From the sequence record OR352937.1: 50,922 bases of DNA, one strand, 5' to 3'. The notes below the pieces were generated by a model. That model made no database searches. It was not told the origin of the DNA and saw only the letters and a program-made list of their open reading frames with translations. Below are positions 428 to 46,857 of the stretch, piece by piece (position 1 is the stretch's first letter; each line of letters begins with the position of its first letter). The stretch comes from Escherichia phage AV106. The position numbers and the translations under genes are program-made.

Positions 428-2442
428 TCCGGGATATCCTCCATACCGAAGTCTTTGCGTGAAATAATATCTTCTTTCTTCTGGTTGCGTCTATGAGTAA
501 CACGTACCGGATGCGCTATATGATGAGAGTATTGCACGATCTTGATAGCGTTCTTCATTCCGATAAAGTAGCGACGCATTTTAGGATCTGACACGTGAGG
601 TAATACTCCTTTCGTTTTCCATAGCGTACCGCAGATCTTAGAGTCTGACTCAGGGAAGAACTTTTCATACGCCTTAAACTCATCACCCTCATCGTTAATA
701 AGCGTGTATTTGTATATCACACCTTTTTGGTTTTTGGTTAACGTAACCTCAAAATTCTTGACCTCGTACCAGTCATTCTTAGTGTACGCCTTACCGGATA
801 ACTTAAGGTTAGGATCGACAAGAGAAACATCGCAACAGCGACAGACTCGGGCCACAACATCATTCTCGGCACCGCACCCTTTAACAAGAATTTTCCCGGT
901 ACGTTCATCAACTTGGTCCTCGCAAATCTGAGAAGTCCAGAAATGATCGCAGCGTTCACCGTCGATAACGTTAACGCAACGGCGAGCATAGAAGCTATTT
1001 ACGCAACCACATTTAGGACACGTTTTCGGGTCTTTTCCGTTCTCGAATCGCTTCTGAAACTGAGCCTGCTCAAGTATAGGGTCAAAATAAAGCTGCCCCA
1101 ACTCGTCCATCGTACCAGCAAAATCCCATACCAGATGATCTTGCTTAACCATTCCTTCAGCAACCTGCCAGGATTTAAGAAGTCGCATACCCCTACCCAA
1201 AAGCTGAATCAGCAAGGTAAGAGATCCTATCTTGCGAAGTATTACACTAAAATCCCAATTTGGAACGTTAACGCCAGTAGTTAGCGCCATGACCTGAAAG
1301 GTATATTTAATTTTCCCAGCCCTCACATCATCAAGAATCTTCTTGCGCGTTTTAGTGTCTGTGTCGCCAGTAATAATTGCATATGTGCTTCCTGGTGGTA
1401 GTGCCGCAGCCGCCTCTTTGCAGTGACGCACCCCGGCGCATGTAATCAGAACTGCGTTACGCTCTTCAGCCTTTTTGGCAACCATTTGCATGATTCGCTG
1501 GGTAAGAGATTTATCATGAAGGATCTCATCTTCCATTGCCTTCATATCTTTCTCTGTGAAGTCCTGCACCCCATCCTCGCTTGATGCCTTAAATTTATCA
1601 AGATCGTAGTGAACTCCGTCCGTCGAGCCGAATATAGTCGGAACGACTGAGCCAAACTCAATAAGGTAGTTGGTGTCTATATCAGTAACGCGCTCACGCC
1701 AGAAGCCTAACGCCTTTGGATTCTCAACAAGAATAGGAACTACACCCCTAAATTCAGATCCAGTCATACCAAATATTCTAAGATCGTGACCGTGAACCTC
1801 TTTACAGCGTCGCATCATTTCCATGATTACGATCGTGTACTGACTGCGCTTAGTTCCAAGAAGAGGCTTTCCATCATTACCAATCAGAGGAGTATCACCG
1901 TCCATGATAATTTTCCCTTTCTCTCCCCGCATCTGTTCCATTGTTTCCTTTCCGTCTATGGCTTGCGCAAGGTCTTCCCAATCCACCTGGTGACATTCAT
2001 CTATCCCGATTACGTGAGGGACAAAATCAGCCAACTCATTATTTAAACCATTTGCAACAGTGCCCTCAGAGCCTACCACGATCGGGAAGTAGCAAGACTT
2101 GATTCCAAGTGACGCTGAGAATATAGAGTTAGTCACTCCGAAATTGTCGATCTCTTCACTATCCTGATCGACAATTTCACCCTGGCGTGCCAGCACAAGC
2201 ATTTTCAAGCCCATTTTTTGACACTGCTTTGCAACCATAGCAAAAATGATGGTCTTACCCGCCGATACTGACGCTTTAACAAAGAATGGATGCTCATAAT
2301 TTGATAGGCGTTTTGCGATCTCAGCATAAGCAACAACCTGGTACGGATACGGAACTACCTCACCAACAGTGAATCGTTCTTGAGTGCGTTTTATATAGTC
2401 CTCGCCAAGTAATGCGATTTGCTTTTTGATGTTAATTGTCAC
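424..2442 (-). CDS. SF2 DNA helicase (DECH box) with C-terminal Cys-rich zinc-ribbon-like region
   Basis: 672 aa; Walker A-like SAGKT, GIDECHQ (DExH box); C-terminal CPKCGC...CxxxxxxxxC cluster; GTG start. Confidence 0.7.
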   Translation of the reverse strand: MTINIKKQIALLGEDYIKRTQERFTVGEVVPYPYQVVAYAEIAKRLSNYEHPFFVKASVSAGKTIIFAMVAKQCQKMGLKMLVLARQGEIVDQDSEEIDNFGVTNSIFSASLGIKSCYFPIVVGSEGTVANGLNNELADFVPHVIGIDECHQVDWEDLAQAIDGKETMEQMRGEKGKIIMDGDTPLIGNDGKPLLGTKRSQYTIVIMEMMRRCKEVHGHDLRIFGMTGSEFRGVVPILVENPKALGFWRERVTDIDTNYLIEFGSVVPTIFGSTDGVHYDLDKFKASSEDGVQDFTEKDMKAMEDEILHDKSLTQRIMQMVAKKAEERNAVLITCAGVRHCKEAAAALPPGSTYAIITGDTDTKTRKKILDDVRAGKIKYTFQVMALTTGVNVPNWDFSVILRKIGSLTLLIQLLGRGMRLLKSWQVAEGMVKQDHLVWDFAGTMDELGQLYFDPILEQAQFQKRFENGKDPKTCPKCGCVNSFYARRCVNVIDGERCDHFWTSQICEDQVDERTGKILVKGCGAENDVVARVCRCCDVSLVDPNLKLSGKAYTKNDWYEVKNFEVTLTKNQKGVIYKYTLINDEGDEFKAYEKFFPESDSKICGTLWKTKGVLPHVSDPKMRRYFIGMKNAIKIVQYSHHIAHPVRVTHRRNQKKEDIISRKDFGMEDIPE

Positions 2443-9296: not shown

Positions 9297-9527
9297 ATGA
9301 AAAAGTTAATCACCATTATTGCCGCCGCATTCATCCTGACTGGTTGTGCTCAGAATCTTAAGAATGGAGACTGCGTTGCTTACGCTTACGGATCTTGCAT
9401 GATGCGATTCGTTGATGGCAATAAGATTCCGTCTGGCGAGATTGACATGCGATTCAAAGGTCTTTCATCAGACGACAACCAGGGCAACTTTAGCGGTAAG
9501 GTGTCAGTTAAAACTAAGGAGTGGTAA
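9297..9527 (+). CDS. Small outer-membrane lipoprotein, Cor/Llp-like superinfection exclusion candidate
   Basis: 76 aa; lipobox LTGC after a hydrophobic signal peptide; own consensus-like sigma70 promoter; sits beside the tail-tip genes as cor does in FhuA-dependent phages. Confidence 0.5.
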   Translation: MKKLITIIAAAFILTGCAQNLKNGDCVAYAYGSCMMRFVDGNKIPSGEIDMRFKGLSSDDNQGNFSGKVSVKTKEW

Positions 9528-20107: not shown

Positions 20108-20189
20108 GATATTTCTCCTGATTGGTTAATGGCACTTTTTGTTAAAAGAGAATAGTGCAAACTTGATACGATGATTTTACAGAAATGAA

Positions 20190-37394: not shown

Positions 37395-37440
37395 ACTATA
37401 TCGCAACCACATGATCGCGTTTTAACAAAAAGTGCTATTC
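37395..37440 (-). promoter_or_regulatory. Dyad-motif promoter
   Basis: AATAGCACTTTTTGTTAAAAC, 22 bp, TATAGT in the loop of ATGTGGTT...AACCACAT. Confidence 0.55.
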
Positions 37441-37626
37441 TTTAATTTCGAAGCAATCCGTATCTTCATAGAATACCCAGGTATCGCCATTATCATCAAG
37501 CAATGAGATGTTACCGAAGCTGGTTAGCGAAGCGTTATAAGGCTTGTTGACAGTAAAGCACTCCTTTACTTCCTCATCTTCGCTACCTTTGAATAATGCA
37601 ATCATTTGGTGCATAAAATCAGCCAT
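37435..37626 (-). CDS. Hypothetical protein
   Basis: 63 aa. Confidence 0.4.
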   Translation of the reverse strand: MADFMHQMIALFKGSEDEEVKECFTVNKPYNASLTSFGNISLLDDNGDTWVFYEDTDCFEIKE

Positions 37627-37635
37627 TTTTAAATC

Positions 37636-37809
37636 CTATTTGCAAGTGATCTCATTTGATGTGATTGGTAGCAAAACGTTGCCAACCATCACAAACGTAG
37701 TAACCTGGTTCCCGGTCTTATGACAGCTATCTCTGACCTCTCCGCATCCTGACACTACCAGGATAGCCAGGGCGACCGCCGCCATCATGCAAATCAATAT
37801 TCGCATCAT
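37636..37809 (-). CDS. Small lipoprotein (57 aa)
   Basis: Start moved to ATG-ATG; signal peptide MMRILICMMAAVALAILVVSGC with lipobox LVVSGC; mature part has further Cys; ATGA overlap with the upstream peptide. Confidence 0.4.
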   Translation of the reverse strand: MMRILICMMAAVALAILVVSGCGEVRDSCHKTGNQVTTFVMVGNVLLPITSNEITCK

Positions 37810-37916
37810 TCGAACGCCCCAGCACACAGGAGAAGCATTACCACGATGCCGACCATAACGTGACCCATGCAGAAGAACCAGACGGCAGACCATAGAGCTA
37901 TTGTATTGAAGTTCAT
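37806..37916 (-). CDS. Small hydrophobic membrane peptide (36 aa, absent from the ORF track)
   Basis: ATGA overlap with stop of ORF 37913..38140, RBS GAGGTG; translates MNFNTIALWSAVWFFCMGHVMVGIVVMLLLCAGAFE; stop overlaps the lipoprotein start. Confidence 0.3.
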   Translation of the reverse strand: MNFNTIALWSAVWFFCMGHVMVGIVVMLLLCAGAFE

Positions 37917-38140
37917 TTTAGCACCTCGATCTTGTTGTCGCCGATTGAGTTTTCTACTACCGATTGCGGATCATCACCAGGAACGCGCATGTAAAAATTA
38001 CTCACCGCCGTGAAGTTCCATTGACCGCGCCACTTGAAATATAATCCGTTCTTTGCGCCTTTCGCGAAGTGAGTAGATTTAGCCGGGATCATGTGCCCGT
38101 TGACGCGGATTAGTTTGGTTAGGTTGCTGTAACGTGGCAT
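37913..38140 (-). CDS. Hypothetical protein
   Basis: 75 aa; RBS GAGGAA. Confidence 0.4.
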   Translation of the reverse strand: MPRYSNLTKLIRVNGHMIPAKSTHFAKGAKNGLYFKWRGQWNFTAVSNFYMRVPGDDPQSVVENSIGDNKIEVLK

Positions 38141-38146
38141 AATTAT

Positions 38147-38410
38147 TTATTCCTCAATTAAAGTGCTTATATCATCATAGCCCTGAAATTCACCATTCCA
38201 GATCAAGAAGCTAGTTACGCCCTCAATCTCAATCCACTTGCCATTCTCCTCTCGATACTCCTTGTAAATGTATGGGGAAAGCTCAATCACTGCATAGCGG
38301 CGATACTGCAAGCCACCATTGATGCTTGAGCAGTAGCGAGAAATGAAAATCGCGTGTTGCTTGTTGTGGCGAGTAGCTTCAATTGCGTTTCTATTCTTGA
38401 CGATTGACAT
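38147..38410 (-). CDS. Hypothetical protein
   Basis: 87 aa; leader CCAATCAGAGGA; preceded by dyad motif and TATAGT. Confidence 0.45.
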   Translation of the reverse strand: MSIVKNRNAIEATRHNKQHAIFISRYCSSINGGLQYRRYAVIELSPYIYKEYREENGKWIEIEGVTSFLIWNGEFQGYDDISTLIEE

Positions 38411-38449
38411 GGTGAATCCTCTGATTGGTATCTCGTTTTGATGGGGTAA

Positions 38450-38495
38450 CTATAGCAAGATACCCCGATCCGTTTTTAACAATTCGTGCTATTTG
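38450..38495 (-). promoter_or_regulatory. Dyad-motif promoter
   Basis: AATAGCACGAATTGTTAAAAAC, 22 bp, TATAGT (preceded by TGc) in the loop of GGGGTA...TACCCC. Confidence 0.55.
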
Positions 38496-46442: not shown

Positions 46443-46470
46443 GAAAGGAGGCTTAGCCTCCTTTTTTTCC
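46443..46470. terminator. Bidirectional terminator between the convergent plus early array and lysis cassette
   Basis: AGGAGGC-tta-GCCTCCT followed by TTTTTTT. Confidence 0.6.
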
Positions 46471-46857
46471 GTTCTTACGAAGTGAAAAATAAATCATCAA
46501 CAGGCCAATAAAAACGAGAGTCCACCCTACAATTGCATCGTACCAGTTCCCCGGTTTTGTTACCGTGATGCTTTCAGCGTTAACCGTGTTAGCCTGAATG
46601 GTTGACACTTCTACAGACTTCTTGACGGATGAGTCAATCTTGCCAATATTTGAATCACTCACCTTCACTTCTCGCTTATCGTCGGCCTTTGCAGTAACTC
46701 CCGCCAGTTGCTTCGTGTTCTCAGCGCCAACCTGCGCAGTAACATCCGGGGAGTCAGAAAGTAAACCGCTCAGAGCAGATGCCGTCGAGCAACCGGATAG
46801 AGAAATAACACCAACAGCCACTGCAATCGCAATGCACGTTTTCTTCAGTTTCATCAT
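46453..46857 (-). CDS. Unimolecular spanin (lipoprotein with C-terminal transmembrane anchor)
   Basis: 134 aa; N-terminal signal peptide with lipobox LSGC and C-terminal helix [19 protein letters not shown], the topology described for T1 gp11; directly downstream of the endolysin. Confidence 0.6.

Follow-up and report, generated by a model that had tools for sequence, protein, structure and literature searches.

A translationally coupled membrane-peptide and lipoprotein gene pair in the T1-like Escherichia phage AV106, and a predicted hairpin mini-domain found on two types of membrane anchor

Results

Gene layout at the locus

The window analysed here is the whole 50,922-nt stretch of DNA from Escherichia phage AV106 (OR352937.1), a Tunavirus (T1-like phage) of the Drexlerviridae. 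The 1-kb stretch around the gene pair described below is matched by 57 phage records, all of them T1-like, with vB_EcoS_SA12KD at the top (97.7% identity). An earlier note on this DNA had proposed that a hydrophobic peptide and a small lipoprotein are encoded here beneath a longer open reading frame, and the strings and coordinates that it gave are all present in the AV106 sequence, on the minus strand. The features of the locus are the following.

38449..38493, minus strand: promoter-like element AATAGCAC-N4-TTGTTAAAA with a stem-loop GGGGTA/TACCCC around TGcTATAGT, preceding a five-gene unit
38147..38410, minus strand: 87-aa gene, first of the unit (phrog_11449)
37913..38140, minus strand: 75-aa gene (Pfam DUF7274 / phrog_6080; dN/dS 0.155)
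37806..37916, minus strand: 36-aa hydrophobic single-pass membrane peptide, ortholog of T1 ORF73 (phrog_25570; dN/dS 0.07)
37636..37809, minus strand: 57-aa prolipoprotein, ortholog of T1 ORF72 (phrog_8628; dN/dS 0.12)
37744..37746, minus strand: codon of Cys22, the predicted lipid-modified mature residue 1 (conserved in 18 of 20 sequences of alignment A1)
37639..37725, minus strand: predicted mini-domain Cys29..Cys56 with the terminal Lys57 (AlphaFold2 model, invariant columns, hhalign 95%)
37435..37626, minus strand: 63-aa gene, last of the unit (phrog_11551; absent from T1)
37395..37435, minus strand: promoter-like element and stem-loop ATGTGGTT/AACCACAT around GCGATATAGT, closing the five-gene unit

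The sequence of the 36-aa peptide is MNFNTIALWSAVWFFCMGHVMVGIVVMLLLCAGAFE, and that of the 57-aa prolipoprotein is MMRILICMMAAVALAILVVSGC followed by GEVRDSC... at the start of the mature part. The peptide gene is joined to its neighbours on both sides by ATGA overlaps: at 37913..37916 the TGA of the 75-aa gene overlaps the ATG of the peptide gene (the junction reads AAATGAAC), and at 37806..37809 the TGA of the peptide gene overlaps the first ATG of the lipoprotein gene (the junction reads GAATGATGCG). A Shine-Dalgarno sequence GAGGT lies about 6 nt upstream of the peptide gene, and the 57-aa gene has a weaker, G-rich one, which is GGGG in AV106 and GGAG in most relatives. The 36-aa and 57-aa genes are translationally coupled to each other, and no second copy of the pair is present within the AV106 window. 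A programmed frameshift that would fuse both genes was also considered, the lipoprotein gene being in the -1 frame, but was rejected, as inspection by eye found no slippery heptamer near the junction.

The elements that flank the unit belong to a repeated intergenic type with 16 copies in the window, each made up of AATAGCAC-N4-TTGYTAAA, a stem-loop around a TGnTATAGT-like -10 sequence, a Shine-Dalgarno sequence and an ATG. Homologous stem-loops are annotated as terminators in SA12KD; a simple sigma-70 scan missed the elements because 22 nt separate their TTGYTA box from the -10 sequence. The simplest reading is that the five genes flanked by the two elements would form one early transcription unit.

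Two overlapping genes instead of one 85-aa protein

The frame of the lipoprotein can be extended upstream across the peptide gene to give an 85-aa ORF (37636..37893), the longest of that frame. The coding status of the alternative frames was assessed in an alignment of the region from 21 T1-like genomes, with the statistics taken from 18 good ones, the AV106 window included, and three error-ridden records, EF3-1 (homopolymer frameshift), ISF001 and SsoS_008, left out. The exact length of both small ORFs is kept in every aligned record except these three. Among the 18 genomes, variable columns at codon positions 1, 2 and 3 number 11/5/23 in the peptide frame (chi-square p=0.0016) and 11/9/37 in the lipoprotein frame (p=2.6e-6), and the mean pairwise dN/dS is 0.07 and 0.12, respectively; both small frames are under purifying selection. 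The 28-codon extension peculiar to the 85-aa frame has the reverse pattern, with 19/9/4 variable columns and a dN/dS of 4.2, it contains in-frame stops in pSf-2 and Shfl1, and in T1 it has CTG in place of the ATG.

The possibility that the phage makes the 85-aa protein and that the 36-aa frame is spurious can therefore be practically dismissed. The 85-aa ORF is the longest of the region and begins with ATG in most relatives, but the variation in its extension is concentrated at its own codon positions 1 and 2, the overlapping 36-aa frame has a dN/dS of 0.07, and the 28-residue basic N-terminal extension would bury the signal peptide. Because of the selection pattern, the stops and the ATG missing in T1, the two-gene reading holds, and the 85-aa ORF is an artefact of mechanical ORF listing that lies over two real overlapping genes, as the earlier note had suspected. 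As for the ATGATG at the start of the lipoprotein gene, the first ATG is the conserved start, since two relatives have ATGATT.

Existing annotation of the pair

The gene pair is already known and has stood in the annotation of T1 since 2004. The T1 GenBank record, which cites the 2004 genome paper, has both genes as ORF73 (CPTT1_005; 36 aa, 1992..2102, "single transmembrane domain predicted N-in and C-out") and ORF72 (CPTT1_006; 57 aa, 2099..2272), with the same overlaps as in AV106. Both lie inside the 2.8-kb terminal repeat of T1 among small early genes, which bears out the earlier assignment of the pair to a block of this kind. Both genes are likewise annotated in the LeonhardEuler record, the UniRef name of the Shfl1 ortholog is "Lipoprotein", and in PHROGs the peptide matches phrog_25570 (E=3e-27) and the lipoprotein phrog_8628 (E=9e-29) over their full length. 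The earlier description of the pair as hidden thus holds for a mechanical ORF track but not for the databases, where T1, LeonhardEuler, PHROGs and UniRef all have the pair or the lipoprotein. The peptide gene is omitted in the SA12KD, SH2, ISF001 and Chapo records and the lipoprotein gene in those of ADB-2 and EF3-1.

Scans of the pair against Pfam, NCBIfam and PHROGs returned only the two PHROGs, both of them families of unknown function; the 57-aa lipoprotein has no Pfam match at E<=1, and a literature search found no study of these two genes. An NCBIfam LptM match of the lipoprotein was set aside, as it lies below threshold (E=0.14) and covers the signal peptide only.

Lipoprotein signal and predicted sorting

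Residues 1-21 of the 57-aa precursor have the features of a lipoprotein signal peptide, with Arg3, a hydrophobic core ILICMMAAVALAILVV and a lipobox V-S-G-C ending in Cys22, and the best 19-residue hydropathy window (2.75) spans residues 4-22. The sequence agrees with PROSITE PS00013 (Lys/Arg within the first 7 residues; [LIVMFWSTAG](2)-[LIVMFYSTAGCQ]-[AGS]-C; Cys at position 15-35) together with its positional rules, having Arg3, which is nearly invariant in alignment A1, and the uncharged h-region ILICMMAAVALAILVV-S-G-C22. Since the PS00013 pattern alone is matched by 18 of the 1647 start/ORF combinations in the AV106 window, the lipoprotein call rests on conservation of the lipobox in the homologues. 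A convincing signal peptide accompanies the pattern in only three of the 18, namely Cor (9297..9527), a u-spanin-like protein (46453..46857, minus strand) and the 57-aa gene product. Of the 20 sequences of A1, 18 have the lipobox Cys, the exceptions being a variant without a lipobox (P0020) and one with a Cys-Cys doublet (P0014); in the DELF2 record Phe takes its place, probably through a sequencing error. The 57-aa protein is accordingly a predicted signal peptidase II substrate with a conserved lipobox, in line with the lipoprotein signal first noticed in the sequence, and processing would leave a 36-residue acylated product.

By default, lipoproteins of E. coli are sorted to the outer membrane, and Asp at position +2 after the lipid-modified Cys is the classical inner-membrane retention signal. 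In the present proteins, Gly predominates at +2 and some have Val or Ser, whereas the IME18 protein has Asp; sorting to the outer membrane is therefore predicted for most members and retention in the inner membrane for that of IME18.

The 36-aa peptide and its possible pairing with the lipoprotein

The peptide is almost wholly hydrophobic (GRAVY 1.61; best 19-residue Kyte-Doolittle window 2.46), as expected of the single-pass membrane peptide that it had been taken for, and has a conserved Gly-His in the middle of the helix and a conserved AGAF[E/D] end. By tblastn and in IMG/VR it was found in Tunavirus and as one copy in the Badaguanvirus IME347, which is 42% identical and unannotated and has no hairpin gene after it. 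The T1-like contig L043 lacks the peptide gene, and its gene for a hairpin protein without a lipobox begins 4 nt after the DUF7274 gene; in L041 a distant lipoprotein member is preceded by a 41-aa transmembrane peptide with a GTGA overlap. An upstream transmembrane peptide is thus present in both of two lipoprotein lineages versus one of six transmembrane-anchored ones (L044), which hints that lipid-anchored versions go with a separate transmembrane peptide, but the difference is not significant (Fisher p=0.11). Profile comparison by hhalign found no similarity between the 36-aa peptide and the transmembrane helix of the transmembrane-anchored family (probability 2.5%), and an origin of the pair by fission or fusion is therefore unsupported by sequence.

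A predicted hairpin mini-domain

The mature chain of the lipoprotein is CGEVRDSCHKTGNQVTTFVMVGNVLLPITSNEITCK. An AlphaFold2 model of this chain (35-36 residues), built from a 14-sequence alignment, is one long β-hairpin with strands 8-21 and 24-35 at a pLDDT of 84, a value to be read with the caution that a single hairpin is a generic fold and that AlphaFold2 confidence on a 36-residue chain is no proof. The two conserved cysteines, Cys29 and Cys56 of the precursor or Cys8 and Cys35 of the mature protein, are opposed at the open end of the modelled hairpin, and a disulfide between them is predicted to staple it. Only six residues separate the hairpin from the lipid anchor, and by hydropathy the lipid-proximal half is polar and the distal half with the tip hydrophobic (TTFVMVGNVLLPI). 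Neither Foldseek, run against the PDB and BFVD, nor an HMM search of PDB sequences brought up anything beyond generic hairpins and the family itself; the non-significant fold matches included arenicin and other hairpin peptides stapled by disulfides.

A weak tblastn match leads from the lipoprotein to 70-aa Henuseptimavirus proteins, bas11_0066 of JohannLBurckhardt and bas10_0070 of IsaakIselin, a phage whose receptor is YncD (PMC8594841). In these proteins, CEKTGRQVLVMIPAGKVMVPIMQDETICK follows an N-terminal transmembrane helix. The profiles of the lipid-anchored and transmembrane-anchored proteins align over the 32-residue hairpin with an hhalign probability of 95% (E=3e-8), and a transmembrane-anchored protein modelled independently has a helix at residues 3-32 and a hairpin at 36-51/54-67 (pLDDT 79). 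Across all members (alignment A4), C, T, the turn G, P, I, E and C are invariant and the Gly after Thr is nearly so, and the family signature Cys...TG...G.V..PI...E..C is found with the two cysteines about 27 residues apart and the Glu three residues before the last Cys. BabyEgg CDS0004 is a further transmembrane-anchored variant. Two sequences bridge the two anchor types: P0020, whose synteny is T1-like but which lacks a lipobox, and P0095, a lipoprotein of a second form, from a soil contig of 69% GC.

The family is a narrow one. An HMM search of 1.84 billion cluster representatives gave only 13 matches, mostly transmembrane-anchored small proteins, a metagenome scan gave only three loci and IMG/VR only 12, nearly all of them in Tunavirus genomes that were already represented, and bacterial and archaeal genomes, one for each of 185,579 species, contained no relative of the hairpin family. 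All members with a taxonomic placement come from virulent Drexlerviridae phages, the others being on short metagenomic contigs. Judged by this distribution, the hairpin proteins are a small accessory family of lytic phages.

Discussion

On present evidence the AV106 locus holds a well-conserved gene pair, which is not in itself a surprise, while the definition of a hairpin mini-domain that is swapped between lipid and transmembrane anchors is new. As one module occurs on both anchor types, the functional unit is likely the periplasm-facing hairpin held at a membrane surface. The transmembrane-anchored relatives would act at the surface of the inner membrane, as the three-residue link between helix and hairpin in the model cannot reach the outer membrane.

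We tentatively consider it quite possible, by analogy with known exclusion proteins, that the lipoprotein works as an effector on the periplasmic side, blocking or resealing a step of phage DNA entry that comes after adsorption. The hairpin would be made early and tethered at the membrane facing the periplasm, where its hydrophobic tip or strand addition could allow it to bind a component of DNA entry beyond the outer-membrane receptor, either the conduit formed by the incoming tail tip or tape measure or a host factor of the inner membrane or periplasm that this conduit needs. The infected cell would then be closed to further DNA entry, or resealed, in an exclusion layer additional to the receptor-level Cor, and the 36-aa peptide might serve as an inner-membrane accessory that coupling keeps in a fixed ratio to the lipoprotein. 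A post-adsorption role is favoured because the transmembrane-anchored relatives, with their very short linkers, would sit at the inner membrane, because the module is common to phages with different receptors (FhuA for T1 and YncD for IsaakIselin), and because these phages appear to have receptor-level exclusion genes already. In the weighing of this entry-block model, the early-region position, the conserved lipobox and the hairpin predicted for both anchors (pLDDT 84 and 79) were counted in its favour; counted against it were that the protein has no homology to any family of known function and that Gly, Val or Ser at +2, as in most Tunavirus members, would direct it to the outer membrane, another surface than that of the transmembrane-anchored relatives.

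The same features may be accommodated by other explanations. The hairpin might act on the host and not on incoming phages, by binding a periplasmic, inner-membrane or outer-membrane-biogenesis protein such as an edge-strand acceptor in the TonB-ExbBD, Lpt, Bam or Lol systems, or a protease, and so alter envelope physiology in favour of the phage or blunt an envelope-based defence. Such a takeover effector is conceivable but doubtful: the gene is an early-region accessory among many small ORFs of host-takeover type, its product is a predicted disulfide-stapled hairpin with a hydrophobic tip, with arenicin-like peptides among its fold matches, and in its sequences the family does not follow receptor type, but no homolog has a known host-directed activity and the fold matches are not significant. 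FhuA and YncD, the receptors known for carriers of the family, are both TonB-dependent transporters, which leaves a TonB-linked target open. A second receptor-masking lipoprotein of the outer membrane, akin to Cor or Llp, is unlikely. The +2 residues of most members predict the appropriate membrane, and the protein would be Llp-like in being small, made early and tied at its termini by a disulfide; on the other hand, the protein neither matches PF24052 nor aligns with the Cor of the phage itself, its gene is away from the receptor-binding genes, the usual site of exclusion genes in Drexlerviridae (PMC8594841), and IME18 has Asp at +2. That homologous hairpins are carried on transmembrane helices with very short linkers in other Drexlerviridae, including the YncD-using IsaakIselin, and that the family is common to phages of different receptors likewise disfavours the receptor masking that had been suggested for the pair. 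Of the other roles put forward in the earlier note, superinfection exclusion or envelope remodelling may apply.

A lysis-related pair, spanin-like or holin/antiholin-like, in which the peptide forms or regulates a lesion and the lipoprotein is its outer-membrane partner, has very little in its favour beyond a superficial resemblance of the gene order, a small transmembrane protein gene with an overlapping lipoprotein gene, to Rz/Rz1. The peptide lacks a domain that could span the periplasm, the mature lipoprotein has 36 residues and is not proline-rich, and the neighbours of the pair are small early genes of unknown function with no lysis cassette nearby. A u-spanin-like lipoprotein gene of the T1 type is located elsewhere, roughly 8.6 kb from the pair (46453..46857, minus strand), and the lysis of T1 is already accounted for by a pinholin, a SAR endolysin and a u-spanin (PMC13164509). 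The spanin role raised earlier thus finds neither a suitable location nor an i-spanin partner. Returning to entry block, a wider and rather more doubtful formulation would be that the hairpin proteins form an undescribed class, in which a stapled hairpin of about 28 residues on a lipid or transmembrane anchor plugs or disables a periplasmic or inner-membrane step of DNA entry or a host envelope machine, and in which, in the lipid-anchored lineages, a coupled peptide of 36-41 aa supplies in trans the transmembrane partner that the transmembrane-anchored versions have in cis.

T1-like phages are classic models, notorious also for contaminating laboratories, and yet we know of no function for most of their early genes. 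As many public T1-like records omit one gene of the pair, annotation should follow the T1 record. With its interchangeable anchors, the hairpin family is a concrete subject for inexpensive assays of exclusion, DNA entry or the envelope; should it prove to provide a further layer of exclusion that acts after adsorption, in addition to Cor, this would help to explain how T1-like phages protect infected cells.

Comparison with known systems

T1 ORF73 and ORF72 are direct orthologs of the AV106 pair, with 86% and 91% identity and with synteny, ATGA overlaps and neighbours in common. The differences, neither of them substantial, are that the terminal residue of the lipoprotein is Lys in AV106 and Glu in T1 and that the AV106 unit has the extra 63-aa gene. 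The transmembrane-anchored relatives in IsaakIselin, JohannLBurckhardt and BabyEgg have in common with the AV106 protein the mini-domain, the predicted hairpin and the position in an early block, but use an N-terminal transmembrane helix as the anchor in place of the lipid, and the Henuseptimavirus hairpin gene directly follows a polynucleotide kinase gene, without an upstream 36-aa peptide.

Among the systems to which the pair had been likened, Llp, Cor and the spanins, there is no homology behind any of the analogies. The likeness to the two-component spanins Rz/Rz1 is confined to the order of a membrane-protein gene and an overlapping lipoprotein gene, whereas the i-spanin has a long periplasmic coiled-coil domain and the 36-aa peptide has none. 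The earlier note had also held the lipoprotein to be distinct from the Cor-like gene at 9297, and this is the case: the AV106 Cor (9297..9527) matches PF24052 (Phage_lipoprotein; 1.4e-24) and is encoded beside tail genes, while the 57-aa protein resembles it neither in sequence nor in profile, a BLASTP comparison of the two gave no alignment, and the 57-aa gene belongs to the early block, about 28 kb away from Cor and not near receptor-binding genes. In Drexlerviridae, cognate exclusion genes are kept beside the receptor-binding locus (PMC8594841).

Like the 57-aa protein, T5 Llp and the Cor of T1/phi80 are small, early, periplasm-facing phage lipoproteins. In T5 Llp, one disulfide (Cys11-Cys58) ties the termini together (PMC9586334), and the 57-aa product would resemble it in being small, early and, as predicted, joined at its termini by a single disulfide. 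The resemblance does not extend to the sequence, the mature AV106 protein, with 36 residues versus 61, is about half the size, and its hairpin differs in having transmembrane-anchored relatives that are expected at the inner membrane. Ltp, T4 Imm, P22 SieA and HK97 gp15 function in post-adsorption exclusion at the cytoplasmic membrane and are larger and mostly helical. Their likeness to the AV106 lipoprotein is in the proposed working only, that of a membrane-tethered protein which would act at the outer face of the membrane and stop DNA entry, and is thus a functional analogy; Ltp of S. thermophilus TP-J34 is, like the AV106 protein is predicted to be, a lipoprotein (PMC3952083).

Intergenic elements with promoter-like features

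An intergenic element of the form AATAGCAC-N4-TTGYTAAA is present in 16 copies in the window, at the following approximate positions:

near 2521, 30766, 32698, 33993, 34513, 36148, 36874, 37435, 38489, 39226 and 49910, (-), minus-strand copies of the intergenic element
near 20132, 23897, 40478, 41449 and 41913, (+), plus-strand copies of the intergenic element

About 12 of the 16 copies carry a stem-loop on the 3′ side with a folding energy of -7 to -19 kcal/mol, and its arms vary from copy to copy with pairing retained. A TGnTATAGT-like -10 box lies within the loop or the 3′ arm and is followed, in this order, by CATCGACAAC, a Shine-Dalgarno sequence and an ATG. The TTGYTA box is separated from the -10 box by 22 nt, a spacing unusual for sigma-70. 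The record of the related phage SA12KD labels the stem-loops rho-independent terminators, yet they lack a T-run on the 3′ side. The elements look like combined hairpin/early-promoter units.

Variation within and around the gene unit

In the five-gene early-region unit that holds the membrane peptide-prolipoprotein gene pair, the first gene (38147..38410, (-)) encodes 87 aa in the window, SA12KD and EF3-1, and 76 aa in most relatives. The last gene of the unit in the window (37435..37626, (-); 63 aa) is missing in T1, where the promoter-like element directly follows the lipoprotein gene.

In phage IME347 (L025, MH051918) an unannotated homolog of the 36-aa membrane peptide, MNPLAFGTAIFFLATGHFWLFIVTMILIGAGAFDDD, lies at approximately 1750..1860 between two annotated genes, with no hairpin or lipoprotein gene after it. 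The peptide homolog is followed by a gene of the MKC[IV]RSTYALF... type (1853..2053), and a related gene in the metagenomic phage contig L046 (996..1184), likewise within the 62-66-aa range, comes after a TM-anchored hairpin gene, which suggests that different genes can occupy the slot 5′ of this gene. The hairpin family also has a distant member of lipoprotein type, P0095, on a contig of just 1.2 kb (L041; JGI soil metagenome 3300028792, 69% GC), arranged as follows:

L041 462..1154, three small transmembrane ORFs (52, 81 and 41 aa), then P0095 as the last gene

The 41-aa ORF overlaps the GTG start of P0095.

Several public records deviate in the region homologous to 37636..37916 of the window. 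The predicted lipid-modified Cys22 is replaced by Phe in DELF2 (L016) and the preceding lipobox residue Gly21 by Val in SH6 (L015), EF3-1 (L021) has a frameshift at a G-homopolymer, and odd substitutions occur in clusters in ISF001 (L018) and SsoS_008 (L019). The deviations in all five records are probably sequencing errors.

A further lipoprotein-type gene

The window also holds another ORF of lipoprotein type:

46453..46857, (-), 134-aa ORF with a clean lipoprotein signal

The ORF is without a Pfam match and is probably the unimolecular spanin of the T1 gp11 type.
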